A stretch of 32,000 bases of DNA from an uncultured bacterium (GTDB lineage Bacteria; Auribacterota; JACPWU01), in assembly GCA_964640155.1 (NCBI GenBank), contig CAZXEQ010000001.1, forward strand, positions 30,001 to 62,000, given 5' to 3'. A model generated the notes under the pieces. The model was not told the origin of the DNA and searched no databases. It worked only from the letters and a program-made list of their open reading frames with translations. Positions 1-28,442 of the stretch are shown here, piece after piece. Position numbers and translations under genes: made by a program. The stretch's first letter is position 1; every line of letters begins with the position of its first letter.

Positions 1-1
1 C

Positions 2-3000
2 TCTGAACTGTTCTGGACGTGCATCAACCGATTCTGCTAGACGAACCCAAGAAGATAAAGCGCCTATATCCCGCGAAGAATCCAAATCTAAATGACCATA
101 CAGGACTTCCACAGCACTTCGAAAACGTTCAAGTTTATCTAACCAGGCACTTAGCTTTCTGGCTAAATCTTCAGGAGTATCATTGGCATCTTTTAAATAA
201 TTCAAAGCAAAGTTTGCCCAAGCCACATCCCGAGCCATCGAAACACTTTCTCTTGAGAGCTGCATAACAGCATTTGCCTGAGCAATATTTCCCAATGCTC
301 TCCAATAAGCAAGACGAGCCGTATCTCTTACTCTTATCTGCCCATGATAAAAACGATTTACGCGTGAATGAATAGCGCTTACCACCTCTCCTAAAGTCTC
401 GATTGAAACCCCCTGAGGGCGAGATCGTACATACGTATCCCAAACCGTCAAGTACCCCTGAGAAGCATAATTCTCATTAAATTGACGTGATGCTCCTGTC
501 ACTTGACTATAAAAACCAGCCAAAGGACCTCTCATCGCATTTCGACCTTGACTTCTCTCCCCATCTGAAACCTTTTGAAATTCTGCATTAAAAACTCTTT
601 GTCTAAAAAGTCTGTCATGATAAGCCAATCTTCTTAAATCTCTTATCGTTGGATCAACGTTTGCAGCTTCCGCAGGTTGTAAAACGGGAGAAAGCATCGC
701 CCCTTGAGGAAAACCTTCTGTCACAGAACGTCTATGAGCAACATTTGAAATTCCCCTAAAAAGAAGGGAATCATGTTCAATGTGCTCTCGTAAAGCAGCA
801 TCTGCCATAGGATGCTGCATTAAAAAAAGAGCATAATAACTAGCAAGACCTAAAAACTTTAAATTAACTCCCGCCCCAATATCACGATTAGAAAAAAGAT
901 CTAGAGTTTCCATAGGAATTAAGGCTTCAAAAGAATTGGCCAAAAAATCTGGAAGAGGACTCCCTGATAACGCCCCACTTCTTAAAAGAGGAATGACCCG
1001 ATGAATATTTGAAAAATAGGTTTGCATATCAGACGCAGACATATTCCTAGACCGAGCATAGCGATCAAAAACAAGAGTCCAATCATTTAAATTCATGACT
1101 CTGCCATCACCCACAGCAGCTCCTAAACTATTCAAAACCCCAGAAACCGCACCTCCTGAAACTAAAGATGGAGAACCTCTCATATGTCGAACATGAGGTC
1201 TTAAGCTAAAATCCCTTAAAAGACTTAACAAAGATCTTACTTCTGTGCGTGTCGCAGCTTGTCGACGTGCATAATCACGCTCTAGTTCTGCCAATCTTCT
1301 TTCTCGAATTCTTGAATCATCTTCTCTTCTTGCTTCTCGTTCATGCCATTCATCTTCAATAGCGCGTTCTCTGGCCGCTTCTCTAGATCTCCATCGTTCA
1401 ACAGACAAAGCACGATCCGAACGTCGTCGCTCAGCATCTTGTCGTGCTAATTCATTATGTTGTTCAACATTCCAAAAGGGAAAAGCATGACCATCCCATC
1501 CCGTACCAGATCTTGCTGTCAAATCGACTCTTTCATAATCCTCCTCAGGAACAACAACCGCTTGAGGAAGCTGAAGACGTGATTGACTGAGAGCCTCTAA
1601 AATTTGTCGTCCTCTTTCTAAAGTAGTTTGTCCCGATCTTAGATGAAGGTGAGGATTTGGACGAGGGGCAGGAATTTCAACATGTTGATCTCGTCGAACT
1701 TGTGCCCTTAAAACAGGATCTAATGCTTGACCCAATTCAGCCATTGTATGAATTGGATTTCTCCGATTTGGAAGATGAGTCTGTACTTGCGCTCTAAAAG
1801 CCGGGTCGGAAAGCGTATGATCTACATAATCTCCAGGATTTGCTCCTAAAGCTTGAGCTAAAGCGAGCAAACCCATCGCATCATTCAATGCAACTGTTCT
1901 TCCAACAACTTCACTTCTTTCTAAATTGACTGCATCTACCCAGCCCAAATTAGTATGATAAGCAGGCAGCTGCGCTTGAGTTGCCCCATGATCCGCTGTG
2001 GCCTCTTGAGCCTCATGACCAGGATAACGTACTCTTAAAGTCTGAAGACTTGTAGTTACATCCGTATATGAAGCAACAAAAGGTAAAGCTAAAAATGCAG
2101 CATGGGGTGTAAAAACAGTTTCATAAGAAGGATCCCAATTACGAACCATTCTTAATTCGCGAAGACCTAATTCACCTGCATAATCTCCACGATTATTAAC
2201 AAGAGATGCAGAATGTGCTGCCATCATTCCTTGACGTAAACTGACTTGATGTAAAATTAGAAAAATATCGTTCTTCTTGCTGGTGTAAGCTGCACCCAAC
2301 TGCAGGTCATCAGCGGAATCTAAAGTTCGAACCGAATCTAAAACACGCCCATCGTTATCAATATAGTGGCCATTATCTCTTAAATCTGCCCAGAGACCCT
2401 GTGTATTCAAACCTAATCCTTCAAAACTAGATGGATCCAATCTACTTCCTCTATCCACTCTCAACTGAGCTTCTCCCTGTAGCAAACTACGATACGCAGA
2501 CGCATTTTCATCTACATTTGTAAGTAAAGGAGGAATACCTATTTGAAAACTTGCACCAAAAAAACTCATTGGAGCAACTAAACCAGGCCGTGGATTATAA
2601 ACTCGTACACGCAAATCTGTAAGTCGCTCCATAGGCATTTCCCCCATCGCCACACCTAATAGTGTCGTCAAAGTAGCTTCACTTCCAAACTCACCCCCGA
2701 AAAGATTAAGATTAATATGATTAATCGGAGATGATGCAGGAGCTCCCAAAAATCGAAAAGCCCTTTGAGGAGGAAAAGGTTGACTCAAATCATCTAATGC
2801 TGGCGTCAAAACTAAAGCTAAATACTGACTATTAGGATCTTGAGGATCATGATACTGTCGATCTAAAAAGACACTCAAATCCTGAGGGGGTTGAATGACT
2901 CTGCCCTCTCGGGTCTCTCCAAAAATAATTCTATCAATGATCTGTAAAATAGCACGACCCTGCAAACTTTGATCACGCAGATAAGCACCTCTGAGCGCAA

Positions 3001-6000
3001 TTAAGGAACCTCTTAAATTCCCATTATCAATGCTAGAAATCCAGCTTTCAGCAGGTTGCAATCTCTGCTGAGGAAGTCTAGAATTTTTTGGGAAATATGC
3101 CGCATAGAAGAATCCTCTATGTCTTGGGAGTGTAGATAAGGTTTGTAAGGTACGTAGAGTAAGATCTCTAGCAAGATCTAAATCTAAAACTCCTAAATCA
3201 CGTAATACCGCAATACTGACAAGATAAAAACCAATATTGGTAATACGATGAATAGGGTTGGTTGGAACCAGGCCATTACCTCGAATAGCTGCGGTGTCAT
3301 AAATCAAACCTGTCTCAGGGTCAACTTTGCGACGCATGGACTCCCATGTGGACAACAAAGAATTTCCTAGTTCTCTTTCGTCCGGTTGTAAACCGATTGA
3401 CGCTCCAGTCACACGCGGCCGAACTGCAGTGCCAGAGTCAGGCCTAGGTTGAGCATAAGCTGTAGGAATAAGAACATCACTGATTCTATCCCATAAAGTA
3501 GGCGAAGTCGTCGTACTCATTCTTACTCCCCATCCACCTGAAGGGAGTGGAGACAGAGAAACGGGGAAACCTCCTTGAACTCTTGTGCCACTTGTTTCTG
3601 TACTAGAATCAGATAGTAGTGCGCCTAAAGAAACTCTCTCTGTTGTTAAAGGAGCGATTGAAGGCAATGTGTTTGATTCAGCTCTTGGTAAAGCTGTTTG
3701 GGATGACAACATTAAATTCCAACGCGTTTGAAAAGCAGCAATATCCTCTGGAGAGAATTGAGTTTCTTCAAAAATTTGAATAATTTGTCTTCTAATGTCT
3801 ACTAATTCATCTTCAGAAAAATGTCTTCCTCTTAAGCTTTCTAATAATGAATTTAATCTTGTTCTAGCACGCATTAACCGGACCAACGTTTCTTGAGATG
3901 GTGCAGGCGTTATTTCAGGTCCATGTGCTGCTTGCTGAGAAGTCGTAGCTCTTTGTCTTGCAGCTTCTCGCCTTTGCCTTCTTAAATCTGTCCTCAAAGA
4001 TCGAATACTCTCATCTAATTTTGCCAATTCTCCTTGCAATAAAACTTGCTCTTGACGGATTTCATCCAAAGACCTTTCAGAAGTTGAAGTCGCGACATTC
4101 CCTGATCGTTCTTCAGCATGCTCAACCAGTCTTTCCAAAGAAATACCCAAAGGTAAAAGATATGCTTTTAAAACCTCTCTTTTTTGAGAAAAATCAGAAA
4201 GAGCAGAAAGAAAAACACTTAATGCTTCTTGATATCGAGTATAAGTCATAATCCATTGTCCTGCTCCAACGGTACTTGTTGTTTCTTCCGCTGTATAGGA
4301 TTCTCGAAATTGTCTCCAAGCTGTTTTCTGAGCTTCAAAATATCTTTGAGCTTCAATCACCCTTAAAACAGAATCTTGAAAATCTTGAATTTTTGCTTCC
4401 AATTCAAGCCCCATCTCCCGACGACGTTCACGTAACTCAGATTCAGCTCCCGCTAAACGAATACGCGCAATTCTTCTTTCAGAAGAAATACGGCCTCCTT
4501 CATACAAGGCAAAAGTCCATTCAGCTCCTGCCCCTACGGCCCCTGACAAAAGTTCTAGCCCCGACCCTCTCAAATTCAAACTTCCTAAATGGTGAAAAAT
4601 TGGAGTTGTAACATCAAATTCTGCGCCTTCCACATGATGAACTTCCGGTAATACGGCACGGTTCAAAGGACTGTTCGCAGCATTTGGATTTGAAAAGAGA
4701 CTTCTAAGTCGTGCATCTACCCATGAATCAAAACCAACTTGATCTCTTAACCATGCTGGCACTTGATCATTTAATTGTGCTGTAGGAGGGAAATCCACAT
4801 CTCTTCCCAACAAGACTCTCAAGCGTTCTTCAGCCATGGCCACAGGATGCTCAGCCAATAAAAGTCTCTGAGTTGCTTCTAATCGCTGAGCATCGTTAGA
4901 GTCTCTCAATGTTGTTGATCCTGAAACAGCAGCTTGTTCAGTATATCTTCTTTGAACTGTGCTTATGAATTCTTGAACAGTCGCTTGATCAGAGCGACGA
5001 ATTTCTTCAACTCTTCTTGCTAAAAGCAAATCATGATAAGCCTGCATTAACTCAAGTGTTGCGCGAACTCTTTCTCTTTGAAAAGAAGCTTGAGCCTCAT
5101 CTAAACGATGCTGAGCTGCTCCAATAGAACGAAAATTTGACCATTGAAGATTCAATGTCGCTTCACCCGTGACAGCTTGATTAAATCCTGCACGAAGATA
5201 ATCCTGTGCGGGAGCAGGAGAAATGGATCCAATATTTGTACTGATTAAACCTGCAGAAGTCCTCATAGTTAAAGGTTCTCTAACTTGATTTGTTACAGCA
5301 TCAATTACGCCCTGTCTTGCTTCTTCAACACGGTGATGAGCCCTCTGAATTGAAGGTAAAGCATTGGGTCCTTCAGGATCCAATGCCATTGCCAAAACTC
5401 TCTCAAAACTCAAAATCTGTGGAGAACGAGTAGGCGTAGGTCTTTGTACATTTACTCTTAATGCTTCTTGCCAATCTCTAGAATAATGACTTCTCTCTTC
5501 ACCATAATGCATTAATATTCTCACAGCTGATCGAAAACTTCGTACAGCTCTATCTAATCTTTGTAAGGCTTCTACTTCTTGAACCCGATCTTCCAAGACT
5601 GTTCCTTCATGAACATTGGGGTCCATATTTGCAACAACATTAGGATCGAACTCTTGACCTGTCATGCGCAAGTGAAGCTGTAAAGCTTGTCGAATTCTCA
5701 CAAGATCCGCTTGAATTTCTCTAATCTGATTCAAACTTTGTTCATAATTTCTATGAGCAGCCGATAAATCTTGTTCCTTTTGCCGTAAATACACAGCTCT
5801 TTCTGTTTGGGCATCTTCCATGGCTTGTTCGGCCCGACGCTGAACAGCATCTCTTGAACTTCCTCCAAATCGACCTGTTAAAGTGAGCATCACTTCCCAT
5901 CCTGGAATTGGAGAAGGCGTAGGAGAGGGTGGCTGAAGAGAAAGAGGATTTTCAGGATTTGATGCTAAAACCCGATCAGGTCGGTCTACAAACCCACGTC

Positions 6001-9000
6001 CTCTTAAATCAAATTCAATGGGACGAAGACTCCCCGCAACGGATGACAAGCGACGATTTCTTGCAACATCAGCCTCTAAAACCCTTAAACGCGCTGAACC
6101 ATCATAACCTGTCGATAATTCAAGTAAGTCTCCTGATGGAATTTGTAATGCATTAATCATCTCATCGGTGACTTGACCCATCCCCATCAAATGAAGAATT
6201 TCTATTTTGATTTGACGCAATTGCGTCTCTGCTCGGGTCTTTTCAGCTTCTGCTCGTCTTAAAGCCTGCTCTTGCCCTTGTATGACCAGACTTCCATATA
6301 AATTCGTATGGGCATTCATATACTGAACAAAGGGTCGTCTAAAATTGATTTCTTGATCTAACTTTGCTATATCTTCCTGTAAATCTTGATACCTTAAAAA
6401 TTTATCCGATAAAGATTCAATCACATGGCTGCGCTCTTGATCAATTTGAGCTCGAATATGCGACTCTAAAACTTCAGCGGCATCAATTTCTTCTTGAGTA
6501 GCACCTAACCAAGGAAGCATCCCTGTAATAGCAACACCCGCACCTAAATTAGAAAAAATGCCTTGTTCAGAAAAAGTCCGATCAGGAGAGAAAAAATCAT
6601 GTCCAGAATCTGCAGCATGAAAAGTGTAGTAAACTTGAGCTCTCGCAAAAATACTCAACTGTGGCCTACGGCTAGCACTAGCTAAAGCTCGTCTAGCTTG
6701 TGCCAAACGAAGTTCTGCGTTTAATCTTTGAATATTTGGATTATTTTGAACCGCTCGAGCTAAAATATCATTGCGCTGAATACCAGATAAGGCTTCTGGC
6801 GTCAACCGTTGCGTTTGTTGAACTGTTTGAATTTCCGCTTCCATCCATTGCGCCCTAGCTTGAGTGTATCCCTGTAAAGCTTCTACTTGCCTTCTTCTCA
6901 CTTCCAAACGTTCTCGCATCGTTCCCAATCGAGCTGCCACATCGTCAGGAATAACTTCTGAGGTAGGAAGCTGCGGAATAGTTGCTAACATATTTAAAAC
7001 CGTCATACGATTTCGCCAATCCAATTCAAATTCCTCGCGATGAAATTGATTGGTTCTACGATCATTGTCTCTTGCTACCCTTAACAAACGACGCTGTTGT
7101 TCAACAACTTCTCTTGCTGCACCTGTATATCCTAAATTTGATAAAACATATCCAACTGATAAATCTGCTCCAAGCGTACCTGTCCATGCTCCTCCTACAT
7201 CAAATCGAGGATCAAAATTAATTCTCCTCATCCCTTCAACAATCACACTTGCATCAAACGTAAAACGATTACTTCGATCCATCACAGATCTTTGGGCTTG
7301 AAGAGCTCTGTCTCGAGCCGTATAAAGAAGTTCGGGATCAAGTCTGTGACTTCGAATTAAAGTTTCCTCCATAACCCCATTTACTTCGTTAATTACAGCC
7401 GTTGTAAAATCTGCTCCCTGCAAGCCTTGTATTCTTGTAACAAATTCAGGAGAAAAACCTCTCACATGAAGATTGCCTCGACGAGAAAAACCCATTTGCC
7501 GCGCTAATTCTGTCTGAGCACGATGTAAAACAGACTCAGCTTCTCTTAAAAAAACACCGGCCTGTCCTCGAGCCGCTTCAACATTACTAAACTCTGCATC
7601 AGATAAAGTTTGCCCCGTATGAAGAGCCTGAGCAGCATTGTATAAACCATTTACATCTCTTTGATATTCTCTAACCATCTCAACTTTTAATTGAGCCATT
7701 AACAAACTGACATAAGCTTGTACCGTATCCATCACCACTTGATGTCTATCTCTTTGAGCCATCTGACGAGCAACATCCCAATTCCTTAACGCAAAATGTG
7801 TAGCAGCGGCACGAACTGGATCAAACCGATAACCAAATCTTAAAACTGCCGAAACTTGCAACCAATTTAAAGGTTGTGCAAAAGATCCATCATCATCGGC
7901 ATGACCATAGAAAGTAAAATTTCGATAGTCTCCTCTTAGAATAAGATGAAGTCCTATTCCATTTGCCCCCTCTTGAAAATCATACATGGCTCTGGCAACA
8001 TCCGCTTCAGTTCTTGGAAGATGATCATGATGATTTAAAGCTTGTTCAATAGTCTGACGTAAATCCATTTCTGCAGGTGGAACGGGTTCTGGAAGAGCTC
8101 CTGTTTCAGTGGTAGGAGAAGTAGCTGCCTCGCGTGCCAGCATTTGTCCTCGATTTTCAGTCATCTTAGCTCTCAGAGTTCTTCTTCGTTCTGTGGCTTG
8201 ACCAAGATTTTGTCTCAAAGCTTGGATTGCTTCTGAACTCCCTGGTTCGAGAACAACAGAAGGCACGCCTGGTTTTTGCTCCACTGAAGAAGTTGTCGTA
8301 GTTTGAACGACCAAAGCACCATTTTGATTTGATGTTGTTGAAGTCTGTATGTCTGTGCCAACAGCCCTAGGAGTCAAAGCGGCAATTTGTTGATCCAATT
8401 GATGTTCGGCCTCCTCTAGAACTTGTACTACAGGAACAGAAGAAATAGGAGTCTCTGAAAAAAGAGTTGAAGAAGAATTATCAGGAAGAACTGTCACAAC
8501 AGGCCCTGGCGATGCCAATGGAGAATGAGAATCACCCAAAATCCCTGAACTTTCTGCTGCATGATAAGCAACCCCTCCTGCCATCACTGCAACACTGGCA
8601 TAACCTAAACCCTCCACACCTTTTAAAACTACACGCGTTGGAATAGAAAGTGCTAGAGGATTCCATGCTAGCTCTAACAATGCTCGATCTTCTTCACCCA
8701 ACTTCCCTTTATAATCCAAAAGATCTTCCGCTGTAATCTCTTCTTTTCTCTCAATCTTTTCTATCATTTCCCCTAAAACATCTCTCAAAGGACAAGCATG
8801 ATCTCTTAGAGCTTGATAAAGAACCCAAAGTCCTCCATGGGGATTCCGATCAAAATGCTGACGATGGGTCATCTCAGTCTTTAAAGTGTCCATATCGACA
8901 GGGCGAGATTGATGATATTGACCTAAAAGGGCATCAAAAACTTCTTGAGACATATCTGATCTAATTTGAAATGCTTTTGCCTGTCCTTTTACATCTACTT

Positions 9001-12000
9001 TTAAAATTGCAAAAGGTTTACCTTCATGATAAATCAATTGTACTTCTTCTCTTGCACTCACTACTTTCTCGTCTTCCAATCTTTCAGAAGACTCCACAGC
9101 TTCACCAATTAAATATTCCACCGGATCCAATTCTCTGAAATAAACAAGCCGTCCATGTACAAACTCACAAAAAAGACCCAATTCTGGATAAAATTTTGGA
9201 CCTGTAAAATCTTTTTTTGAAGCCTGAGGAAGATCAAAAACCTTTGCTGTTGTCTGATCATAAAATCTAACAGGATTACCCTTTTGATATTCCACACGGA
9301 CATTGACTTTTCGACGGGCACTGAGTAATTTCCCTTCTAAAAATTGAGCAACATAAGTCTCACTTTCCCATCGACCCGTAAAATTTTCATCGACAGGCTG
9401 AGGAATTGCTAAAGGGGCTGCTCCTTTCCCAAAAGGATCTACAAAATCATAAGCATACACAAAACCAGGTCGTTCTTTACTTTTTAGCTCTTGAACTTTT
9501 TCTGAAGTCATTACTCCTTTTTTTACCAATCGATCTAACGCTTCTGATGTGAAAAGTTCAAAATCATCTGCTGAAAAACCTGTAAAGTTGGCTGACAATT
9601 CAAAAGATTCAGGTCCAGGAATAGAATAGGCCGCTGAAGCATGGTCTCTTGCACTTAAAGAAACGCGTGAAAAACCAATTTCTTTTTTCCCCTCTCGATG
9701 GACAAATCGAACATCCTCTTTTCCTACCACATCATGAAGATCTAACCAATGACCTAATTGTTCTGGACGCAAACCTAAAGGTTTTAAACTGGAAACTCGA
9801 GCTAATTCTTCTTCAATGGCAGATGTTGCTTTTAATAATGCCTCTTTTAAATTATCCTCAAAATTTTCATCATCTAAACTTCCATAAGCCAAATTAATGA
9901 CAATTTTCTGCCCATCCCAAACAACCATTTCAGGTTTCTTTGCAAAATAGGCAGCAACTCCTTCTATTACTTTCCAAACAAGTCCTAAGGCAAATCCTAG
10001 CGTAATCGAAATAAAAGTTTTTGAAATAAACTTCCCAATCAAACTCAAAATAGAAAACGTCCAGCGGGCTGTAATTCCTTCAAGTTCCCTTATTCCCCAA
10101 ACCAAAGAAATCTCTTTCCTGAAACCCTGCCAAATAGAAGGACGAGTTTGATTGCTCTCCACTTTCAATTCAGGTTTATGAATCACAGCGACTCTCACTC
10201 TAGCGGCTTCTTGCATTTGGGCTAAAAATGGATATTGCGTCAAAAGTGTTTGACGCCACTGAACTAAACTCTGATGACCCGCTAACACCTCAGACCCTTC
10301 CATTAAAGTTTCCACACGTTCTAAATCTCCATCTGAAAACTTGCCTTCACCTTTTTGGGTAGGATCTACAAAAAGAATAACGGGAGGATATTCAACAGTC
10401 ACTTCCGGTCCTGCACGATGGGGATGAATCATTTCATCCAGCCAGGATTTTCTTTCGCTTTGAAAATTTCCGAACTTCTTAAAGAATAAGGCAAAGAAAA
10501 CAGCTACATCTTGTCCACGACCTGCCAAATCTGCCAAAACTTCCTGGGCAACACGCTTTTTCTCACCTATATTTGTAGAATGCGTCAAACAAGCAGCTAA
10601 ACGCTTCAACTGAAACTCATTCATCTCCACAAAACTTGCTTCTGGACTTAATTCTTCTGCTTTTTCAATCACTCCTACTTTTAAAATAATTCCCATCGGT
10701 TGGCCATATACAACCACAGGAATATAATAATCATCTCCTAATCTTTGAATTTTCTCTGAATCCACTTCCACGGCTGAAAGAGCATCAGAAAGTCTTTCTC
10801 TTATTGACGCAGCCTCTTCATCACTCAGAAGTCCTTCCCGGACGCGATTGAGCAAAAACCCATTTAAATGAGCTGTATGTTCTTTCGTATTACCCCGCTC
10901 CATTTCTCCAGCCTGCCCCTTTTTCCCTTCAGTAACCAATTTCGTTACTTGAGCACTCGCCAAAATTCTCATTAAACTCAAAGCTACACGGACGGAAACT
11001 TGCTGGGCTTCTGCTTTTGTTCCAGCCACTCTTCTAATCTCTGGATCTGCAATCTCTGCCAAAAAACTTGCTAATGCTGAGGGCAACATATTCAGCATCA
11101 AAGGGCCTAACTGATCGGAATTTCCACGATAAGCCACCAGTGGTATTTGCTTCGAACTCGTATCTGTTGAATCGGAAGGTTGAGAGAGAAGTTTCGATAA
11201 AGAAACTTTACCTTTTACTTCATTCTTCTTACTTAAAACTTTCATCTCTTGTTCCATCGAAGAAAGTTCATCATCCATAATGGAAAGATAAGGAGTTTTA
11301 AGCTTCAATTTGGTTACTTTTGGAGTAATAATCACATAAGAAATACCCTTTTCTTCTAACTGCTTTGCAATCCCCTCTGAATGAAATCCTCCTGCCACAA
11401 GCACAGCAACAGGACTCTTAGCTTCTTTCATGGACTCCAACATATTTTGAACCATCACCTTGTCACGCTCTTTAGCAAAATCATAAAATTGTTTTAAAGG
11501 TTGAATATTTTCATCTAAAAAATTGATATCTGGAACATCGAAAGTCCGATCTACACTTAAAGAAATTTCTTTCAATCGAACTAATAAGTTGGAGGGTTTT
11601 AATTTTTCTTCATTTTCGTAGTAGTAAGACAAACCTGAACGCAAAAGCTCTAAATGATAAAAATCGCGAAGAAGCTTTAATGATTTGCCAATCTCAAACA
11701 AATCTTTTTGTTTTGGATCTTTTAAATAGGCTGCCTGTAAATCTTTTAAAATTTGATCACATTCGCCAAATAAAGCCTCGCTATCAATTTCATTAAAAAT
11801 TTTCACCATTTCAATATAAGAAGAAAGATTAGGATAACTTTCTAAAGAAACTTGAGCCTTTAAAACAGCTTTTTCTAAAGAGCTATAAAATTCATATGCC
11901 TTTATTTTCTCCAAACGATAATAAAGCCCTTGGGTTAAAAGATCTGCGAACTCCTCTTTAGCAACCTTCTTAGAAAGAACATTCATTAAATCCTGTCGTT

Positions 12001-12853
12001 CTTGTTCTACTTTATTGATTTTGATTTTCTTCTCAAGCTCTTTGACATCCATCATCTTCTTGATATTCATGCTTCCAGAAATATTTGAAAGCCCGAGAGT
12101 CTTTACCTGAGCCAGAAGAAACTCAACATAAGCAGCAAATCCTATTTTATCCTGATTGTAGTCTTTCTCTTTTTTGAGAAGATTTTTAACTTCCGATGGA
12201 TAAATTTTATCTTCAAGAACTTTCACTTCATTTTCTAATTGAGTTAAAAGCCCATCTGCTTTTTCCTGAACGGACATAGATTTTTGGAAAGCAAGAAAGT
12301 TATTAAAATAAAGAGGAAGATTTTCAATACCTTTCATCAAAAGGGGCTTATCTTGAACAATCGAGAGATATTCAGCTCCCGTAATTTTCCCCTGTTGAAG
12401 CAAAAGTCGTGCAACTTGTTTACGAATTTCAACTTGAGGGAAAGCTGTGAATAGAGAAGTATCTACCAAACCAGAAGCAGCTTCTAAACCAATCAGTTTT
12501 AAACCATGATCAGAATGTTTTTTGAAAAATTCATTGAGAATTTTTGCAGAATTGGATTGAGCTTCGAAATTACAGTGAAGATCTTGAATGTGAATAATCA
12601 GGGGTTGATTTTGACCTTGAAACTTGGATTTTATAAACCCCAGACTGGGACTTACATGAAATTCGGATACGGTAGGAGAGCTGGATGATGATTTAGACTT
12701 TTGAACAGGTGATTCATTAATTTCCAAGCCTCTTGCAAAGGCAAAATCACTACACAAGAAGCTAAAAGCAACAAGAACTGAAGTAATTCGGATTCTTATC
12801 GAAAAACCGTTCTTTTTTGTAAAAAAATTCCGGGATTGATATTTCCTAACCAT
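2..12853 (-). CDS. Giant multidomain envelope protein; N-terminus complete, C-terminus beyond the window edge (at least 4,284 codons visible)
   Basis: I hand-translated the minus-strand frame (codon low coordinate = 2 mod 3) across all 214 sequence lines. The ATG is at 12853-12851, with GGGGAG 6 nt upstream and an in-frame upstream stop at 12884-12886. No stop codon occurs down to nt 2. The protein starts MVRKYQSRNFFTKKNGFSIRIRITSVLVAFSFLCSDFAFARGLE. A complete-ORF track would omit it because it has no stop in the window, and no other frame in 1-12853 holds a long ORF. Confidence 0.9.
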   Translation of the reverse strand, partial: MVRKYQSRNFFTKKNGFSIRIRITSVLVAFSFLCSDFAFARGLEINESPVQKSKSSSSSPTVSEFHVSPSLGFIKSKFQGQNQPLIIHIQDLHCNFEAQSNSAKILNEFFKKHSDHGLKLIGLEAASGLVDTSLFTAFPQVEIRKQVARLLLQQGKITGAEYLSIVQDKPLLMKGIENLPLYFNNFLAFQKSMSVQEKADGLLTQLENEVKVLEDKIYPSEVKNLLKKEKDYNQDKIGFAAYVEFLLAQVKTLGLSNISGSMNIKKMMDVKELEKKIKINKVEQERQDLMNVLSKKVAKEEFADLLTQGLYYRLEKIKAYEFYSSLEKAVLKAQVSLESYPNLSSYIEMVKIFNEIDSEALFGECDQILKDLQAAYLKDPKQKDLFEIGKSLKLLRDFYHLELLRSGLSYYYENEEKLKPSNLLVRLKEISLSVDRTFDVPDINFLDENIQPLKQFYDFAKERDKVMVQNMLESMKEAKSPVAVLVAGGFHSEGIAKQLEEKGISYVIITPKVTKLKLKTPYLSIMDDELSSMEQEMKVLSKKNEVKGKVSLSKLLSQPSDSTDTSSKQIPLVAYRGNSDQLGPLMLNMLPSALASFLAEIADPEIRRVAGTKAEAQQVSVRVALSLMRILASAQVTKLVTEGKKGQAGEMERGNTKEHTAHLNGFLLNRVREGLLSDEEAASIRERLSDALSAVEVDSEKIQRLGDDYYIPVVVYGQPMGIILKVGVIEKAEELSPEASFVEMNEFQLKRLAACLTHSTNIGEKKRVAQEVLADLAGRGQDVAVFFALFFKKFGNFQSERKSWLDEMIHPHRAGPEVTVEYPPVILFVDPTQKGEGKFSDGDLERVETLMEGSEVLAGHQSLVQWRQTLLTQYPFLAQMQEAARVRVAVIHKPELKVESNQTRPSIWQGFRKEISLVWGIRELEGITARWTFSILSLIGKFISKTFISITLGFALGLVWKVIEGVAAYFAKKPEMVVWDGQKIVINLAYGSLDDENFEDNLKEALLKATSAIEEELARVSSLKPLGLRPEQLGHWLDLHDVVGKEDVRFVHREGKKEIGFSRVSLSARDHASAAYSIPGPESFELSANFTGFSADDFELFTSEALDRLVKKGVMTSEKVQELKSKERPGFVYAYDFVDPFGKGAAPLAIPQPVDENFTGRWESETYVAQFLEGKLLSARRKVNVRVEYQKGNPVRFYDQTTAKVFDLPQASKKDFTGPKFYPELGLFCEFVHGRLVYFRELDPVEYLIGEAVESSERLEDEKVVSAREEVQLIYHEGKPFAILKVDVKGQAKAFQIRSDMSQEVFDALLGQYHQSRPVDMDTLKTEMTHRQHFDRNPHGGLWVLYQALRDHACPLRDVLGEMIEKIERKEEITAEDLLDYKGKLGEEDRALLELAWNPLALSIPTRVVLKGVEGLGYASVAVMAGGVAYHAAESSGILGDSHSPLASPGPVVTVLPDNSSSTLFSETPISSVPVVQVLEEAEHQLDQQIAALTPRAVGTDIQTSTTSNQNGALVVQTTTTSSVEQKPGVPSVVLEPGSSEAIQALRQNLGQATERRRTLRAKMTENRGQMLAREAATSPTTETGALPEPVPPAEMDLRQTIEQALNHHDHLPRTEADVARAMYDFQEGANGIGLHLILRGDYRNFTFYGHADDDGSFAQPLNWLQVSAVLRFGYRFDPVRAAATHFALRNWDVARQMAQRDRHQVVMDTVQAYVSLLMAQLKVEMVREYQRDVNGLYNAAQALHTGQTLSDAEFSNVEAARGQAGVFLREAESVLHRAQTELARQMGFSRRGNLHVRGFSPEFVTRIQGLQGADFTTAVINEVNGVMEETLIRSHRLDPELLYTARDRALQAQRSVMDRSNRFTFDASVIVEGMRRINFDPRFDVGGAWTGTLGADLSVGYVLSNLGYTGAAREVVEQQRRLLRVARDNDRRTNQFHREEFELDWRNRMTVLNMLATIPQLPTSEVIPDDVAARLGTMRERLEVRRRQVEALQGYTQARAQWMEAEIQTVQQTQRLTPEALSGIQRNDILARAVQNNPNIQRLNAELRLAQARRALASASRRPQLSIFARAQVYYTFHAADSGHDFFSPDRTFSEQGIFSNLGAGVAITGMLPWLGATQEEIDAAEVLESHIRAQIDQERSHVIESLSDKFLRYQDLQEDIAKLDQEINFRRPFVQYMNAHTNLYGSLVIQGQEQALRRAEAEKTRAETQLRQIKIEILHLMGMGQVTDEMINALQIPSGDLLELSTGYDGSARLRVLEADVARNRRLSSVAGSLRPIEFDLRGRGFVDRPDRVLASNPENPLSLQPPSPTPSPIPGWEVMLTLTGRFGGSSRDAVQRRAEQAMEDAQTERAVYLRQKEQDLSAAHRNYEQSLNQIREIQADLVRIRQALQLHLRMTGQEFDPNVVANMDPNVHEGTVLEDRVQEVEALQRLDRAVRSFRSAVRILMHYGEERSHYSRDWQEALRVNVQRPTPTRSPQILSFERVLAMALDPEGPNALPSIQRAHHRVEEARQGVIDAVTNQVREPLTMRTSAGLISTNIGSISPAPAQDYLRAGFNQAVTGEATLNLQWSNFRSIGAAQHRLDEAQASFQRERVRATLELMQAYHDLLLARRVEEIRRSDQATVQEFISTVQRRYTEQAAVSGSTTLRDSNDAQRLEATQRLLLAEHPVAMAEERLRVLLGRDVDFPPTAQLNDQVPAWLRDQVGFDSWVDARLRSLFSNPNAANSPLNRAVLPEVHHVEGAEFDVTTPIFHHLGSLNLRGSGLELLSGAVGAGAEWTFALYEGGRISSERRIARIRLAGAESELRERRREMGLELEAKIQDFQDSVLRVIEAQRYFEAQKTAWRQFRESYTAEETTSTVGAGQWIMTYTRYQEALSVFLSALSDFSQKREVLKAYLLPLGISLERLVEHAEERSGNVATSTSERSLDEIRQEQVLLQGELAKLDESIRSLRTDLRRQRREAARQRATTSQQAAHGPEITPAPSQETLVRLMRARTRLNSLLESLRGRHFSEDELVDIRRQIIQIFEETQFSPEDIAAFQTRWNLMLSSQTALPRAESNTLPSIAPLTTERVSLGALLSDSSTETSGTRVQGGFPVSLSPLPSGGWGVRMSTTTSPTLWDRISDVLIPTAYAQPRPDSGTAVRPRVTGASIGLQPDERELGNSLLSTWESMRRKVDPETGLIYDTAAIRGNGLVPTNPIHRITNIGFYLVSIAVLRDLGVLDLDLARDLTLRTLQTLSTLPRHRGFFYAAYFPKNSRLPQQRLQPAESWISSIDNGNLRGSLIALRGAYLRDQSLQGRAILQIIDRIIFGETREGRVIQPPQDLSVFLDRQYHDPQDPNSQYLALVLTPALDDLSQPFPPQRAFRFLGAPASSPINHINLNLFGGEFGSEATLTTLLGVAMGEMPMERLTDLRVRVYNPRPGLVAPMSFFGASFQIGIPPLLTNVDENASAYRSLLQGEAQLRVDRGSRLDPSSFEGLGLNTQGLWADLRDNGHYIDNDGRVLDSVRTLDSADDLQLGAAYTSKKNDIFLILHQVSLRQGMMAAHSASLVNNRGDYAGELGLRELRMVRNWDPSYETVFTPHAAFLALPFVASYTDVTTSLQTLRVRYPGHEAQEATADHGATQAQLPAYHTNLGWVDAVNLERSEVVGRTVALNDAMGLLALAQALGANPGDYVDHTLSDPAFRAQVQTHLPNRRNPIHTMAELGQALDPVLRAQVRRDQHVEIPAPRPNPHLHLRSGQTTLERGRQILEALSQSRLQLPQAVVVPEEDYERVDLTARSGTGWDGHAFPFWNVEQHNELARQDAERRRSDRALSVERWRSREAARERAIEDEWHEREARREDDSRIRERRLAELERDYARRQAATRTEVRSLLSLLRDFSLRPHVRHMRGSPSLVSGGAVSGVLNSLGAAVGDGRVMNLNDWTLVFDRYARSRNMSASDMQTYFSNIHRVIPLLRSGALSGSPLPDFLANSFEALIPMETLDLFSNRDIGAGVNLKFLGLASYYALFLMQHPMADAALREHIEHDSLLFRGISNVAHRRSVTEGFPQGAMLSPVLQPAEAANVDPTIRDLRRLAYHDRLFRQRVFNAEFQKVSDGERSQGRNAMRGPLAGFYSQVTGASRQFNENYASQGYLTVWDTYVRSRPQGVSIETLGEVVSAIHSRVNRFYHGQIRVRDTARLAYWRALGNIAQANAVMQLSRESVSMARDVAWANFALNYLKDANDTPEDLARKLSAWLDKLERFRSAVEVLYGHLDLDSSRDIGALSSWVRLAESVDARPEQFR
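1840..3340 (-). other. Glucoamylase-like (PF10091/DUF3131/GH144-type) (alpha/alpha)6 glycoside-hydrolase-like domain of the giant protein (aa about 3,170-3,670)
   Basis: Motifs TNPIHRITNIGFYLVSIAVLRDLGVLDLDLARDLTLRTLQTLSTLPRHRGFFYAAY...WISSIDNGNLRGSLIALRGAY and YHTNLGWVDAVNLERSEVVGRTVALNDAMGLLALAQAL. They resemble the GFFYhW...S.iD...L and GyGf.DafN...iDqGp.l motifs of that family. Recalled from memory, not searched. Confidence 0.45.
4142..8068 (-). other. Six OEP (TolC-type) repeats forming three TolC-protomer-sized units inside the giant protein (aa about 1,596-2,904)
   Basis: Three consecutive units of about 425-435 aa (about nt 8068-6800, 6799-5500 and 5499-4142). Each opens with a TolC-like N-terminal motif: MDLRQTIEQALNHHDHLP; LSGIQRNDILARAVQNNPNIQRLNAELRLAQARRAL; ILSFERVLAMALDPEGPNALPSIQRAHHRVEEARQ. 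Each also contains OEP signatures such as ATLNLQWSNFRSIGAAQHRLDEAQASFQRERVRATLELMQAYHDLLLARRVEEIRRS and AEWTFALYEGGRISSERRIARIRLAGAESELRERRRE. Confidence 0.75.
9941..10063 (-). other. Internal hydrophobic transmembrane segment(s) of the giant protein (aa about 931-971)
   Basis: Translation WTFSILSLIGKFISKTFISITLGFALGLVWKVIEGVAAYFA, flanked by charged residues. Confidence 0.5.
11300..12680 (-). other. N-terminal module of the giant protein, paralogous to the neighbouring 1,063-aa protein; ChaN/TraB/GumN/Tiki-like His motifs
   Basis: Giant PLIIHIQDLHCNFEAQSNSAKILNEF...LKLIGLEAASG aligns with neighbour TVLLVQDAHCNFEAQRNTSEILNSL...IPLIGLEGAQG. Giant FYDFAKERDKVMVQNMLESMKEAKSPVAVLVAGGFHSEGIAKQLEEKGISYVIITPKV aligns with neighbour FYEFALQRDEAMLNASLQGMEEKKVSLMMLVTGGFHTQGIAQALKEKDISFFIITPKV. 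The spacing between the two His motifs is about 390-400 aa in both proteins. The superfamily assignment is an inference from this motif pattern. Confidence 0.6.
12731..12853 (-). other. Predicted Sec signal peptide of the giant protein (aa 1-41)
   Basis: Basic n-region (RKYQSRNFFTKKNGFSIRIR), hydrophobic core ITSVLVAFSFLC and an AFA-R cleavage-like site. Assigned by eye only. Confidence 0.55.
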
Positions 12854-12904
12854 TTGCAACTCCCCGCCCCCCAGTTTATATAACTACTTCTCTCTCTTTA
12901 GTTA

Positions 12905-12913
12905 ATTATACCA
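12905..12913 (-). promoter_or_regulatory. Alternative extended -10 element (TGGTATAAT) upstream of the giant gene
   Basis: The minus strand reads TGgTATAAT at 12913-12905, about 50 nt upstream of the ATG. Confidence 0.35.
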
Positions 12914-12937
12914 TAGAGATGCAAATTTCACATATAT

Positions 12938-12966
12938 GCTATACCACATGAAATATCAGATGTCAA
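12938..12966 (-). promoter_or_regulatory. Candidate sigma-70 promoter for the giant gene (TTGACA-17 nt-TATAGC)
   Basis: On the minus strand, TTGACA is at 12966-12961, followed by a 17-nt spacer and TATAGC at 12943-12938. The site is about 85 nt upstream of the ATG. Confidence 0.4.
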
Positions 12967-13797: not shown

Positions 13798-16700
13798 TTA
13801 CGCCGATTGTCCTAAAACCTCATCTTCCATACCACCCAGCGCATTCAACTCTTGCGATGCATCCATGCTGGGCTGAGGAGGAAGATCCATATGACCTTCA
13901 ACAGCAACTCCCTTTAAAGCTCCCACAATTTTCTCTCGAGTCATTCCTGTACGAGCTAAATTCTTCTCTAATGCATCTACCAATTCTTGAGGGGGTTCAA
14001 ATTTTTCCCCTGTTCCTACTAAGCTCTTAACTTCATTGACAATCACGACAGCTTCTGTAAAAGAAGTCGCTTCTCCCAATTGACCTTGTTCAATAACAAA
14101 TGCCAAATGCTTGGCCAAACGGCCCGCTAATTTTTCCTTACTTTCTACAAAAAGAACAATGTTTTTTGCATCTATTTTTACTTTTTCAGCAATAGCTCGA
14201 GACAATGTATCCAAAATATTTTCTTCTGCCTTCTTTTCAGAAATCACATCATTAACTCCCACAAAAAGCGCTGCATCGCCAGGCAACCCAAATAAATTCA
14301 AAATATTCTGCCTGACTTGAGCATACGCAGAAGCAGGGACACTTTCATCCAAACTAATTAAAGCTAATTTTAAAGTTTGCTCTGCAGGGGTTCCTCTGAC
14401 ACGAGCAATGAGATTCTTAATTGTAGCAATGACTTCTCCTGCTTGAACGCTCGGCTTAGCTTGCACACTGCCATTTTCAACGGTCACAGATTCAAAAAGT
14501 AAATTAGTTAATAAACCAATGGCCATGGGTTCGGTAAAATCTTTTTCGTACAAACTTGCAATCGATGCACCTTTTTCCTCCAAAGTAAGCCGCGCTGATG
14601 TGGCAACTCGCTCTTTATTACGCACGTCAATACCCACTTCAGGATTTACAGCCAATTGATCTTTAAATCTAATTTTCAAATCTCCATAAAGTCTTGCAGC
14701 TATCTCAAAATCAGAAACAGAAACCGCAGCTGTATAAAGTGCATCCACCATGCGCTTGGCTTGATTCAAATCATCCAAAGCAAAAGTGATTTCTAAGTCA
14801 GCTAAAACTTTTCCTAAACTTTCAATTGTTACATCACTCGAAGCCAGACGATCAAATAAAACTTGTGCTTTGTCTCCATCCACTTCCACGCTCAAATTTT
14901 TCAAAGCTGCTATCAACCATTGATTTCTCAAAGCCGTCTGAGCATTTGAAACATTTTGGGGAGTTTCAAACGCAGAAAAAGCAATAATACCCTCACTTGA
15001 ATCCATTGAGCCGGTTACATCTCCTCCATTGACTCGCGTTGGAACCAATCCTCGAGATGCCGCGCGAGCTTGAATATTTGCTGGCGCCTTTTCTCCCTGA
15101 CTCAAAATCACAACACTTTCACGGCGACTGACTTTCCCGTCTTCACCTTTGACTTCATAGGAAATAGGCATTTCTACATAAGTGATTCCATTCTCAACCT
15201 TTAATCGAGGGGGTGAAATCCAAACTTGTTCGGCCCCTAATTTTTCTCTTAAAGACGCGAGATCTTGATAAGCCTTTAACAAGGCTAATTGTAAAGTTAA
15301 AAGAGCTTGCCCCTTTTGATAAAAAGGTTCTAGCGTCATTCGAAGAATTGCAAAAAGCTCTCTCATGCTGCGCCTGCGTCCATCGGACATGGAATCTTTT
15401 GCTGTGACCAACGGGACTTGAACAGCCAAAGCACTCCCCTGACTCAACCATTGATCGAGTGGAGACAATTCATTCATCAAAATTGAAAAATAGGGAATTG
15501 GGACATTTTTCTGAATCACTTTGGGAGTAATAATAAAAAAGCTAATATCTTTTTCTTTGAGTGCTTGGGCAATTCCTTGGGTATGAAATCCCCCTGTTAC
15601 AAGCATCATCAAAGAAACTTTCTTTTCCTCCATCCCTTGCAGTGAAGCATTCAACATCGCTTCATCTCTTTGTAACGCAAATTCGTAAAAAGCTTTAAAC
15701 AAACTTGTCACTCCTTCTAAATTCTTCAAATCTTCAGGAAACACAAGAGGAACTTGTCGATCATCTGCTATTTTAGCTAAAGGAGAAACGATTTTATCCC
15801 ATTCAAATTCATCTGAGTGCTTCTGAAAATATTCAAACTCTGAATTTGAAATACGAAAATGACAAAGGCGGGTAATCAAACCTACTTTTACATCAATTTC
15901 ATTTAATTCCTTCTCTTGAGCACTCTGAAGTAGTTTTTCTTTTAATCCATTTGTTAATCCTTCGATTTTTTCAAAAAGTTCTGGCTCCAAAATTTCTTTC
16001 ACATGATAAATATAATTGTGATAAATAGCCACTTGAGGGAAGTTTTTAAGATCAATATTTCTATCTTTTGAAAGACGAAATAAAAATCCATAATATTTCC
16101 ACGCTGAAAGGCGATTGGTTTTAAAAAGAAGAGTTTGAGAAAGTAACTGGCCTGAAATTTCAGGAGCTAAATCTTTACTCAATTGATTGATTAAGTCTGC
16201 CCTTTGTTTTTCTAACAATTCAAAATCAAGCTGCTTTTCCAGCATAAAAACATTCTGTTGCTCAGCAACAACCGATTGAGGATCAACCTTATGCCCGACG
16301 CTTTCAGCAAAATCCATCAAACTCGAGAAATAAGGTTGAAATAGAATCTCCCCTCTTTCATAAGATTGCAAAATGCGATCCAATTCAAACATCTTCTTTG
16401 AATAAACTTTTTCTTTCAGCTGATCTAAATTTTCCTGAAGTGCTTGAAAAGCAGGTTCAAACTTCTGAAAAGAACGATAAGCATTCCTAAATGCTTCCAA
16501 ATTTTTAAAATAAAGATCACGAGACTCAACGCCCAGAAGTTCTGTCCCCTTGGCCAAATCAGAATTAATCACAAAAAATTCTGGTCCGGTAAGCCAGGCG
16601 TCCTTCAAAAAAGAATATGTAATCTCTTGAACAGCCTGTCGATTAGGATCAGAGGCAAAAAGATCTTCTTCAAACTCACCTTGTGCGCCTTCTAAGCCAA

Positions 16701-16989
16701 TCAAAGGAATGGCTTTAGTTTGACTTAAAGAATTCAAAATTTCAGATGTATTACGCTGTGCTTCAAAATTGCAATGGGCATCCTGCACCAACAGAACGGT
16801 TTTACCTGATTTCCCTTTAAAAGACCCATTCACTTTTCCAAAAGCTTCACTAAAGTCCGGGGTATAAGTTTCTTGCTTGTCTGAAAAAACAGGAGAAAGG
16901 AAAATAAAACTTGAGAAATAAAGAGAAATGAATACCCAATGGAAAAGCCCTAACCGTTTTAAAGAGAAATTCTTAACTAAAAAAGGCAT
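13798..16989 (-). CDS. Large secreted or anchored protein (1,063 aa), paralog of the giant protein N-terminal ChaN/Tiki-like module; C-terminal half unassigned
   Basis: ORF track entry. Hydrophobic N-terminus LGLFHWVFISLYFSSFIFLSPVFS. The motifs VLLVQDAHCNFEAQ, LIGLEGAQG and LVTGGFHTQGIAQALKEKDISFFIITPKV are shared with the giant ORF. Confidence 0.85.
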   Translation of the reverse strand: MPFLVKNFSLKRLGLFHWVFISLYFSSFIFLSPVFSDKQETYTPDFSEAFGKVNGSFKGKSGKTVLLVQDAHCNFEAQRNTSEILNSLSQTKAIPLIGLEGAQGEFEEDLFASDPNRQAVQEITYSFLKDAWLTGPEFFVINSDLAKGTELLGVESRDLYFKNLEAFRNAYRSFQKFEPAFQALQENLDQLKEKVYSKKMFELDRILQSYERGEILFQPYFSSLMDFAESVGHKVDPQSVVAEQQNVFMLEKQLDFELLEKQRADLINQLSKDLAPEISGQLLSQTLLFKTNRLSAWKYYGFLFRLSKDRNIDLKNFPQVAIYHNYIYHVKEILEPELFEKIEGLTNGLKEKLLQSAQEKELNEIDVKVGLITRLCHFRISNSEFEYFQKHSDEFEWDKIVSPLAKIADDRQVPLVFPEDLKNLEGVTSLFKAFYEFALQRDEAMLNASLQGMEEKKVSLMMLVTGGFHTQGIAQALKEKDISFFIITPKVIQKNVPIPYFSILMNELSPLDQWLSQGSALAVQVPLVTAKDSMSDGRRRSMRELFAILRMTLEPFYQKGQALLTLQLALLKAYQDLASLREKLGAEQVWISPPRLKVENGITYVEMPISYEVKGEDGKVSRRESVVILSQGEKAPANIQARAASRGLVPTRVNGGDVTGSMDSSEGIIAFSAFETPQNVSNAQTALRNQWLIAALKNLSVEVDGDKAQVLFDRLASSDVTIESLGKVLADLEITFALDDLNQAKRMVDALYTAAVSVSDFEIAARLYGDLKIRFKDQLAVNPEVGIDVRNKERVATSARLTLEEKGASIASLYEKDFTEPMAIGLLTNLLFESVTVENGSVQAKPSVQAGEVIATIKNLIARVRGTPAEQTLKLALISLDESVPASAYAQVRQNILNLFGLPGDAALFVGVNDVISEKKAEENILDTLSRAIAEKVKIDAKNIVLFVESKEKLAGRLAKHLAFVIEQGQLGEATSFTEAVVIVNEVKSLVGTGEKFEPPQELVDALEKNLARTGMTREKIVGALKGVAVEGHMDLPPQPSMDASQELNALGGMEDEVLGQSA

Positions 16990-18692: not shown

Positions 18693-18724
18693 AAAAAAAT
18701 CATTTTGAAAATTAAAATTTTTGG

Positions 18725-28434: not shown

Positions 28435-28442
28435 AAAAGACT

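Follow-up and report, generated by a model that had tools for sequence, protein, structure and literature searches.

A single giant gene occupies the first 12.85 kb of the window analysed here, a 32,000-nt stretch (positions 30,001 to 62,000 of contig CAZXEQ010000001.1) from an uncultured bacterium of the Auribacterota. The stretch is a genuine, intact piece of this gene, which lies on the minus strand and comprises at least 7,655 codons. Its product combines a signal-peptide-like N-terminus, a head domain with relatives in other large ORFs (open reading frames), three consecutive TolC-like units, and a glucan-clan domain, and its lysine content collapses after residue 1411. We consider it rather probable that the product is a Sec-exported giant surface protein that spans the envelope, with a single-chain TolC-like channel and a displayed lysine-poor tail. 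Domain, hydropathy, and composition results given below cover the first 4,284 of the at least 7,655 residues.

Open frame and extent of the gene

The frame beginning at ATG 12853 was translated from the reverse complement of positions 1–12853 and ran down to nt 2, giving 4,284 codons with no stop; nt 1 remains as a single extra base. In the five other frames we counted 177, 286, 264, 323, and 308 stops, the plus-strand frames accounting for 177–286. The initial annotation had described an uninterrupted giant gene with no in-frame stop in 2–12853, and our six-frame recount gave the same result. This part of the window had appeared ORF-free because the ORF list omits frames running off the source. 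From base composition the stop probability is 0.067 per codon, resulting in a log10 P(no stop) of −130, and in 200 shuffles of the stretch the longest open run was 166 codons. GC content at the three codon positions followed the order GC1 > GC2 > GC3 in 12 of 12 windows of 357 codons, and GC3 stayed between 0.20 and 0.30 all along the gene. Tandem DNA repeats were not found within 2–12853, except for one weak 43-nt match.

The nearest in-frame stop 5' of the start is a TAG at 12884–12886. N-terminal residues of the product aligned with homologs from other genomes (P0001 and P0002), which supports a start at ATG 12853. Upstream of it, candidate promoter parts were observed as TTGACA (12966–12961) and TATAGC (12943–12938) with a 17-nt spacer, together with an extended −10 element, TGgTATAAT (12913–12905). 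An automatic promoter scan did not flag these elements.

An independent Logan contig, SRR8893623_72241 (28,776 nt), was located via the tetratricopeptide repeat (TPR) protein encoded upstream of the giant gene, which occurs on that one Logan contig. It was identical to the window at all 15,637 positions compared. The giant gene was called there at 7,655 residues, from contig position 22,965 to 1 (22,965 nt = 3 × 7,655), and was still open at the contig end, which agrees with the earlier claim that it runs off the window. This sets a lower bound of 22.97 kb on the gene and of about 850 kDa on its product. With 7,655 open codons in the Logan contig, the gene exceeds the 5,000-codon mark for giant genes.

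The long ORF could be an artefact of chimeric assembly, a pseudogene in decay, or a frame that is open merely by chance or as antisense. The contig is metagenomic, the gene is cut at the contig end in both assemblies, and its composition changes sharply at codon ~1412, all of which would fit such an origin. However, the two assemblies agreed base for base over 15.6 kb, the codon statistics were uniform, with GC3 and codon-position GC pattern equal on both sides of the composition switch, and the gene is free of repeats. In-frame protein homologies also flank the switch, with the head domain on one side and the OEP and glucan domains on the other, and a P(no stop) of about 1e-130 speaks against a chance frame, as do the stops on the plus strand. 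An assembly artefact is thus very unlikely, and the artefact explanation as a whole is barely credible.

TolC-like units

Known outer-membrane factors (OMFs) are ~450-aa proteins that form a 12-stranded barrel as homotrimers. In the giant, three consecutive units of 421, 464, and 425 aa, the typical size of a TolC protomer, showed similarity to this family. PF02321 (OEP) matched the whole giant with 70.6 bits (E 2e-19) over 5 stretches. When the OEP half-repeats were scored one by one, five of the six were detected and three (halves 3, 5, and 6) were above the gathering cut-off of 22 bits. The second half of unit 1 was undetected by Pfam and showed weak self-similarity to halves 4 and 6 only. 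TIGR01844 (TolC) matched unit 3 with E 3.2e-5 in one stretch spanning both halves (model positions 85–356 of 414). Two OEP repeats were thus found in unit 3; in unit 2 only the first half passed, and unit 1 is suggestive only. The six halves aligned in register, and each showed a hairpin-like segment between the helices, both by eye and in the six-half alignment. No homologs of the TolC-like region were found among 5.8 billion clusters, and hhalign of the region against an approximate sequence of E. coli TolC gave nothing.

Lysine switch

Residues 42–1411 contained 119 Lys (8.7%) and 59 Arg. The last Lys of this rich zone is K1411, and a weakly hydrophobic Gly/Ala-rich segment lies at the switch (aa 1408–1433). 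In the tail that follows, a count of no more than 22 Lys has a probability of about 1e-70 under the background rate. Szulc et al. (2023, PMC10665810) speak of a lysine desert where at least 150 consecutive residues include no Lys, and the tail contains six such runs, of 471, 461, 427, 269, 230, and 159 aa. The 14 other window proteins had 4.9–11.4% Lys, with the exception of an AlgE-like porin at 1.5%, the one outer-membrane protein encoded in the window. The porin value hints that the whole outer envelope of the organism may be Lys-poor.

The switch left the synonymous sites and the charge nearly unchanged. GC3 was 0.26, 0.24, and 0.28 for the Lys-rich part, the tail, and the neighbouring genes, respectively, and GC2 rose from 0.33 in the Lys-rich part to 0.45 in the tail. 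Total K+R was 13.0% vs 11.2% and pI 5.8 vs 6.2 across the switch, and net charge was kept. AGA, which is one mutation away from AAA, made up 44% of the Arg codons in the tail vs 23% in other genes. These values point to a native sequence in which Lys was replaced by Arg under selection at the amino-acid level, and not to foreign DNA. The idea that the Lys-poor part was acquired recently from a high-GC organism was rejected, as its GC3 is 0.24 vs 0.26–0.28 elsewhere. None of 80 inspected relatives of the head domain had a Lys-poor tail. A scan of 85 related loci for Lys-poor ORFs returned mainly antisense artefacts and was uninformative.

Glucan-clan domain and C-terminal stretch

Residues 3140–3720 showed similarity to the beta-1,2-glucan clan. 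In an exhaustive phmmer (HMMER) search this domain matched 147 representatives at E ≤ 1e-3, the best at E 3.3e-12 (P0016), and the representatives checked carry PF11329 (DUF3131) together with PF10091 ('Glycoamylase'). The giant's domain aligned full-length with family representatives at 22–27% identity. A joint family profile matched Cgs residues 974–1491 with E 2e-88, the GH189 structure 8wy1 with 3e-79, and the GH144 structure 5gzh with 7e-10 (GH, glycoside hydrolase family), and the giant sequence alone matched Cgs with E 1.5e-5 over 91 aa. The clan motifs are retained, among them the SE motif with its near-invariant Glu, E3392 (nt 2678–2680). The general-acid Glu of the clan is conserved as E211 in CpSGL, E262 in TfSGL, and E1356 in TiCGS (PMC10834661), and E3392 is a candidate counterpart of this residue (E211/E1356). 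We therefore assign aa 3140–3720 to the beta-1,2-glucan clan; the domain may act as a hydrolase or a transglycosylase, or it may only bind its ligand.

A ~60-aa module is inserted in this domain (aa 3466–3525, nt 2279–2458, minus strand; GLWADLRDNGHYIDNDGRV...) and belongs to no Pfam family. It resembles a module with the motif LWxELRxxxYIDxNGxV that is repeated several times in P0016, a 4,946-aa dockerin-containing protein. Relatives of the glucan domain were not found in GTDB genomes or JGI metagenomes.

Further downstream, the Arg/Glu-rich segment at aa 3790–3885 resembles an E/R/K-type single alpha-helix that has no Lys at all. Residues 3880–4284 had no relatives among 5.8 billion clusters, GTDB genomes, and JGI metagenomes, and aa 3886–4284 gave no Pfam or NCBIfam match. 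Pfam matches of the giant to DDE_Tnp_1, DnaB, and DUF6890 were below the cut-off and treated as noise. A repeat-built adhesin was also rejected, as DNA repeats were lacking and self-BLAST was empty.

Signal peptide, head domain, and Lys-rich region

The signal peptide proposed in the initial annotation was recovered, with a basic n-region, a hydrophobic core, and the cleavage-like sequence AFA|RG. This N-terminus (aa 1–41) is conserved in the homologs P0001 and P0002, which have typical signal peptides. Over the 4,284 residues, hydropathy showed the signal peptide, one clear hydrophobic segment (aa 942–968, nt 9950–10030), and weak ones besides.

The head domain carries the motifs IHIQDxHCNxEAQ (aa 86–99), E124, and GGFH (aa 488–491). 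It had 15 homologs in the protein collection, the best being from Candidatus (Ca.) Theseobacter exili (Auribacterota) and a 'Chlamydiota' metagenome-assembled genome (MAG), and 450 relatives in GTDB genomes, mostly Omnitrophota. The initial annotation had mentioned Omnitrophota as a lineage with genes of this size; the head domain is commonest there, but the closest relatives are the Auribacterota MAG and a groundwater MAG labelled 'Chlamydiae'. We inspected 80 loci with 10-kb flanks, in which many head-domain ORFs end only at the flank edge. Their lengths were often 1,500–3,900 aa and reached 3,880 aa and more, which makes the domain the common N-terminal part of a family of large exported proteins.

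An AlphaFold2 (AF2) model of the head domain, built on a 16-sequence alignment, reached pLDDT 85 and showed an alpha/beta core dominated by the ~300-aa helical insert. Foldseek gave no significant match in the PDB; the insert drew pore-forming toxins and dynein stalks at E > 0.04, and the best TM-score among the PDB matches, also not significant, was that of EreC. A head-domain profile against PDB sequences returned nothing. PF04187 matched 5 of the 16 family members (best E 3e-5) at the C-terminal strand-helix with GGFH, and PF01963 matched the GGFH region with E 0.03, both below the curated cut-offs. Taken together, the head domain is weakly Tiki/ChaN/TraB-like. With the OEP/TolC-like units and the glucan-clan domain it makes up the unusual mix of domain types in one chain that the initial annotation had noticed.

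Several observations were made on other members of the head-domain family. Two members of 3,367 and 3,856 aa contained partial sugar-enzyme matches: UDPGP (E 6e-10) together with a methyltransferase at locus L007 (9716–19816, plus strand), and PGM_PMM domains I/II (E 4e-13) at locus L017 (306–11873, plus strand). Such cytoplasmic-type matches are odd for proteins with signal peptides. In the MAG 'Chlamydiae bacterium NC_groundwater_819', one head-domain gene (locus L002, 10001–12441) ends at 360 aa with a DDE transposase gene directly after it and looks like a gene truncated by an insertion sequence. Three other head-domain copies of the 'Chlamydiae' groundwater MAG head ORFs of >1,500 to 3,367 aa. 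At three Omnitrophota-type loci labelled 'uncultured Planctomycetia' (L030, L037, and L050), sequences resembling pyruvate phosphate dikinase (PPDK) lie a few kb upstream of the head-domain genes. They are 27–29% identical to the N-terminal half of the window PPDK, which is encoded ~10 kb upstream of the giant. The proximity of PPDK to head-domain genes at these three loci and in the window is possibly a coincidence.

Proposed arrangement in the envelope and rival readings

In the arrangement that we favour, the N-terminal Sec signal would export the giant product, and the Lys-rich first ~1,400 residues would probably remain in the periplasm or at the inner membrane. Beyond the flexible linker, the three TolC-like units would most likely fold into one outer-membrane channel-tunnel. 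A single-chain channel is proposed because the six hairpins would give 12 strands, the number that a TolC trimer supplies. The glucan-clan domain and thousands of further residues would then most likely be displayed at or beyond the outer membrane, where their targets may be glycans in the surroundings or on other cells. The near-complete loss of Lys, which begins with the first linker, and its replacement by Arg suggest that the lysine side chain is selected against in the place where that part works.

A number of results weigh against this arrangement. With 17.3 and 16.4 bits, halves 1 and 4 of the TolC-like region fell short of the cut-off, and Pfam missed half 2 altogether; hhalign of units 2 and 3 against unit 1 was not significant. 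A phmmer search of the region against the PDB gave nothing, the three-unit profile matched only designed PPR proteins and V-ATPase subunit G (spurious matches) and no TolC structure, and the six-half profile likewise reached no TolC structure. AF2 run on 1,200 aa without an alignment gave an unusable pLDDT of 39 and thus no structural support for the single-chain barrel. The glucan domain of the giant by itself was below every Pfam threshold. Both chain ends of TolC lie in the periplasm, which would place the domains downstream of the units there as well, unless the chain passes through the channel. Most of the TolC tunnel is itself in the periplasm, but here it is Lys-poor, so that 'Lys-poor means outside the cell' is not a clean rule. 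The 4,284 residues showed neither the many transmembrane regions nor the SecA-like domains of the published Omnitrophota giants, and at least 3,371 further residues lie outside the sequence examined.

A bolder form of the same idea is a TolC-type autotransporter, in which the three fused protomers would form a 12-stranded channel-tunnel and the following at least 4,700 residues would be threaded through it or displayed with no separate secretion system, Lys being purged by a lysine-directed hazard at the surface or in a target cell. We consider this form unlikely.

Alternatively, the protein might remain in the envelope as a glucan-handling machine and be no surface weapon. It would be a Cgs-like megaenzyme whose cyclase-clan domain makes or remodels periplasmic beta-1,2-glucan, and its fused TolC-like duct would let the polymer out. 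The sugar-nucleotide-type domains in head-domain family members (UDPGP in L007, PGM_PMM in L017) and the alginate-export-type porin and TPR proteins within 8 kb would suit such a machine, and with periplasmic TolC termini no threading of the chain would be needed. We nevertheless find this reading doubtful. Neither a glycosyltransferase nor a phosphorylase domain was found in the 4,284 residues, synthesis from UDP-glucose depends on domains in the cytoplasm whereas the giant begins with a signal peptide, and the purge of Lys is left unexplained; tRNA genes and the SpoU methylase gene also separate the porin and the second TPR gene from the giant. The one-for-one replacement of Lys by Arg with the charge kept, which indicates selection against the lysine side chain itself, would fit a delivered effector or toxin. 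In such a case the Lys-poor part would be released, possibly after processing, to work in or on another cell, and it would avoid Lys as a protection there from ubiquitination (in a eukaryotic host), Lys-specific proteases, or amine-reactive chemistry, and the TolC-like units might even insert into a target membrane. The Tiki/TraB superfamily, to which the head domain is weakly tied, includes proteases. The closest relatives belong to the Planctomycetes-Verrucomicrobia-Chlamydiae (PVC) lineages, and proposals for these include predation or life with a host as well as giant 'weapon' proteins; the six Lys-free runs of at least 150 aa fit the lysine deserts linked to avoidance of ubiquitin or Pup (PMC10665810). 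Toxin, RHS, RTX, and known effector domains were absent from the 4,284 residues, there was no sign of a host or of processing, and the low Lys content of the organism's AlgE-like porin suggests a general property of the outer envelope. An effector is thus quite improbable.

Lys avoidance could also reflect a habitat to which exposed proteins had to adapt, such as one of high pH, where Arg keeps its charge and Lys does not; it would then reveal nothing particular about how this protein works. Depletion of Lys, sometimes with a gain of Arg, has been reported in secreted enzymes of alkaliphiles (PMC13591233). The porin in the window shares the depletion. But the head domain, the 1,063-aa paralog (both exported), and the TPR protein are Lys-rich at 7–11%. 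The periplasm is expected to follow the external pH, and the relatives come from groundwater and a marine-derived Antarctic lake. This explanation is highly improbable, and the surface protein with a single-chain channel remains the reading that we prefer.

Feature coordinates and neighbouring genes

Table 1. Coordinates of the giant gene, its parts, and the two genes directly upstream of it (positions within the window).
Feature	Residues	Position (nt)	Strand	Basis or remark
Giant ORF, codons 1–4284	1–4284	2..12853	−	Translation; open at window edge, reaches at least codon 7,655 in SRR8893623_72241
GGGGAG, Shine-Dalgarno-like		12860..12865	−	Read from the sequence; 6 nt 5' of ATG 12853
Promoter-like elements		12905..12966	−	Consensus matches only, in the 174-nt gap after the TPR gene
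Sec signal-peptide-like N-terminus	1–41	12731..12853	−	Basic n-region, hydrophobic core aa 21–39, AFA|RG
Head domain	42–530	11264..12730	−	Alpha/beta core and ~300-aa helical insert
Lys-rich region without assigned function (about 880 aa)	531–1411	8621..11263	−	aa 531–790 conserved with the Theseobacter ortholog fragment
Lys-poor zone	1412–4284	2..8620	−	22 Lys (0.77%) and 301 Arg (10.5%) in 2,873 residues
Ser/Thr/Pro/Gln-rich linker	1434–1595	8069..8554	−	Lys switch just before the linker
TolC-like unit 1	1596–2016	6806..8068	−	First half OEP E 0.004, below Pfam cut-off
TolC-like unit 2	2017–2480	5414..6805	−	First half OEP full model 44.3 bits, E 2e-11; second half E 0.008
TolC-like unit 3	2481–2905	4139..5413	−	OEP halves 25.9 and 28.0 bits, both above the 22-bit cut-off
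Charged coiled-coil-like segment, then Ser/Thr/Pro-rich linker	2906–3139	3437..4138	−	Sequence
(Alpha/alpha)6 domain	3140–3720	1694..3436	−	Beta-1,2-glucanase/Cgs-cyclase clan; GH144/GH162/GH189-like; DUF3131 and 'Glycoamylase'
Arg/Glu-rich helix-like segment	3790–3885	1199..1486	−	26 R, 14 E, 0 K in aa 3801–3900
Region without assigned function	3886–4284	2..1198	−	Open at window edge
TPR protein, 174 aa		13028..13552	−	Directly upstream of the giant; ortholog in Ca. Theseobacter exili, 39% identity
1,063-aa paralog		13798..16989	−	N-terminal ~510 aa 28% identical to giant aa 8–535, E 5e-63

The tail of the 1,063-aa paralog is unrelated to that of the giant and Lys-rich, and the protein starts with a signal-peptide-like N-terminus of its own. 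A gene at a contig end in the MAG of Ca. Theseobacter exili encodes 852 residues that align with giant aa 14–790 at 33% identity, and the TPR gene listed in Table 1 as an ortholog lies directly upstream of this fragment. The pair is the orthologous locus, truncated by assembly. This shared gene order makes an Auribacterota-like bacterium of the PVC group the most likely carrier of the giant gene. A 2,658-aa ORF near another Theseobacter head-domain gene was considered as the missing tail and rejected, as it showed no similarity and was Lys-rich.

Within the 19 kb upstream of the giant we found genes for the TPR protein, the paralog, SpoU, tRNAs, a porin, a PRTase, sigma-70, PPDK, GlyQS, RecO, DUF502, DAGK-PAP2, and YbeY. 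The neighbourhood had been described as housekeeping; such genes are indeed present, but it is not purely housekeeping, as the two genes directly upstream belong with the giant. Genes for type II secretion or carbohydrate import were not found in these 19 kb, and the window held no gene for a membrane-fusion protein or an inner-membrane transporter that could be the partner of a TolC-type system.

All annotated window ORFs of at least 150 aa are on the minus strand. The outer-membrane porin at 19161–20540 (minus strand) is AlgE-like, i.e., of the alginate-export type (PF13372, E 4e-34). Genes for tRNA-Glu (CTC), tRNA-Gln (CTG), and tRNA-Arg (CCT) are interspersed upstream of the giant at 18619–18693, 18972–19044, and 21939–22012, respectively, all on the minus strand. 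Between the SpoU methylase gene and tRNA-Glu lies a 269-aa ORF (17662–18471, minus strand; 249 aa in the Logan call) with 10.4% Lys and no Pfam match. As listed, glyQ (28443–29333) and glyS (26299–28494) overlap by 52 nt (28443–28494), and the true start of glyS is probably further downstream than listed.

Significance and comparison with known systems

How the giant proteins of PVC lineages reach the cell surface and what they do there is a question on which three features of this gene bear. The confidently modelled head domain marks ~450 loci and offers a way to find and classify large exported proteins. The single-chain channel, if true, would be a route for a near-megadalton protein across the outer membrane and a natural one-chain version of a trimeric channel. 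Within one protein, Lys drops from 8.7% to 0.8% while the charge and the use of synonymous codons stay as they were, a clear mark of selection on a single side chain. The drop points to a lysine-directed pressure at the surface and could serve as a sequence-only marker of exposed protein parts.

The giant type 1 adhesins LapA/LapE of Pseudomonas fluorescens and MpIBP of Marinomonas primoryensis are retained in a TolC-like outer-membrane channel. In these systems the channel and the adhesin are separate, export proceeds by an ABC transporter via a C-terminal signal, and the adhesins contain RTX and Ig-like repeats. They are the closest working analogy to the proposed arrangement of the giant, in which a TolC-type duct of the outer membrane would likewise hold a huge surface protein, passing through it or anchored in it, between a part retained in the periplasm and a long part outside the cell. 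The giant differs in having the channel-like units in the same chain, a Sec-type signal, and no RTX or repeat domains found; neither an autotransporter beta-domain nor RTX nonapeptide repeats gave a Pfam or NCBIfam match in the 4,284 aa.

Compared with the TolC/OMF family (PF02321; TIGR01844), the units are alike in length (421–464 aa) and in having two OEP-type halves each, and the matches of units 2 and 3 are significant. Unlike in known OMFs, three of them follow one another in a single protein of at least 7,655 aa, and their sequences have diverged so far that neither pairwise searches nor small profiles reach a solved TolC. The accessible part of a Chem Rev review (PMC8277102) makes no mention of fused OMF forms. 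With the Tiki/ChaN/TraB-PrgY/erythromycin-esterase superfamily the head domain shares an alpha/beta core and weak Pfam matches in the GGFH region, but all matches are below the cut-offs, no PDB profile or fold match is significant, and the ~300-aa helical insert sets it apart. The glucan domain resembles the beta-1,2-glucan clan (GH144/GH162/GH189, Cgs) by its full-length homology, clan motifs, and near-invariant Glu, and differs from it by scores below the Pfam thresholds and by the ~60-aa insertion shared with the dockerin-rich 4,946-aa protein.

Giant genes of PVC lineages (Omnitrophota, Elusimicrobia, CG03, and Auribacterota) have been documented (West-Roberts et al. 2023, bioRxiv 10.1101/2023.11.21.568195), as has a ~6,000-aa protein of Ca. 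Menyafoubacter (PMC12057145). The size that the initial annotation called exceptional is therefore real, at 7,655 codons or more, but not new in itself. Omnitrophota giants have many transmembrane regions, a SecA-DEAD-like domain, and dockerin/CASH/RHS domains, with type II secretion or carbohydrate import genes nearby (bioRxiv 10.1101/2023.11.21.568195). Like them, the present giant consists of one ORF exceeding 5,000 codons, with an N-terminal secretion signal, a carbohydrate-active-type domain, and long unannotated stretches, and its head domain is common to ~450 mostly Omnitrophota loci, many of them heading ORFs of 1,500 to 3,900 aa and more. Unlike in those giants, many transmembrane regions, SecA-DEAD, dockerin, CASH, and RHS were not found in its 4,284 residues by Pfam, NCBIfam, and hydropathy, and the 19 kb upstream contain no type II secretion genes. 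Within the head-domain family itself, no member showed similarity to the giant beyond aa ~540–790, and the tail distinguishes it from the 80 loci inspected.

Known lysine deserts (PMC10665810; Kampmeyer et al. 2023, PMC10169902) share with the tail the Lys-free runs and the compensation by Arg. They are tied to ubiquitin or Pup, and the bacterial ones occur in high-GC Actinobacteria, whereas the desert described here takes up 2,873 residues or more of an exported protein, and the genome is Lys-rich with 39% GC. In the literature searched, neither a natural single-chain TolC nor a lysine desert of at least ~2,900 residues in a low-GC bacterium is described. Giant size is thus a known property of PVC lineages, whereas the tandem fusion of TolC-like units and the ~2,900-residue lysine desert in a 39% GC genome appear to be new.

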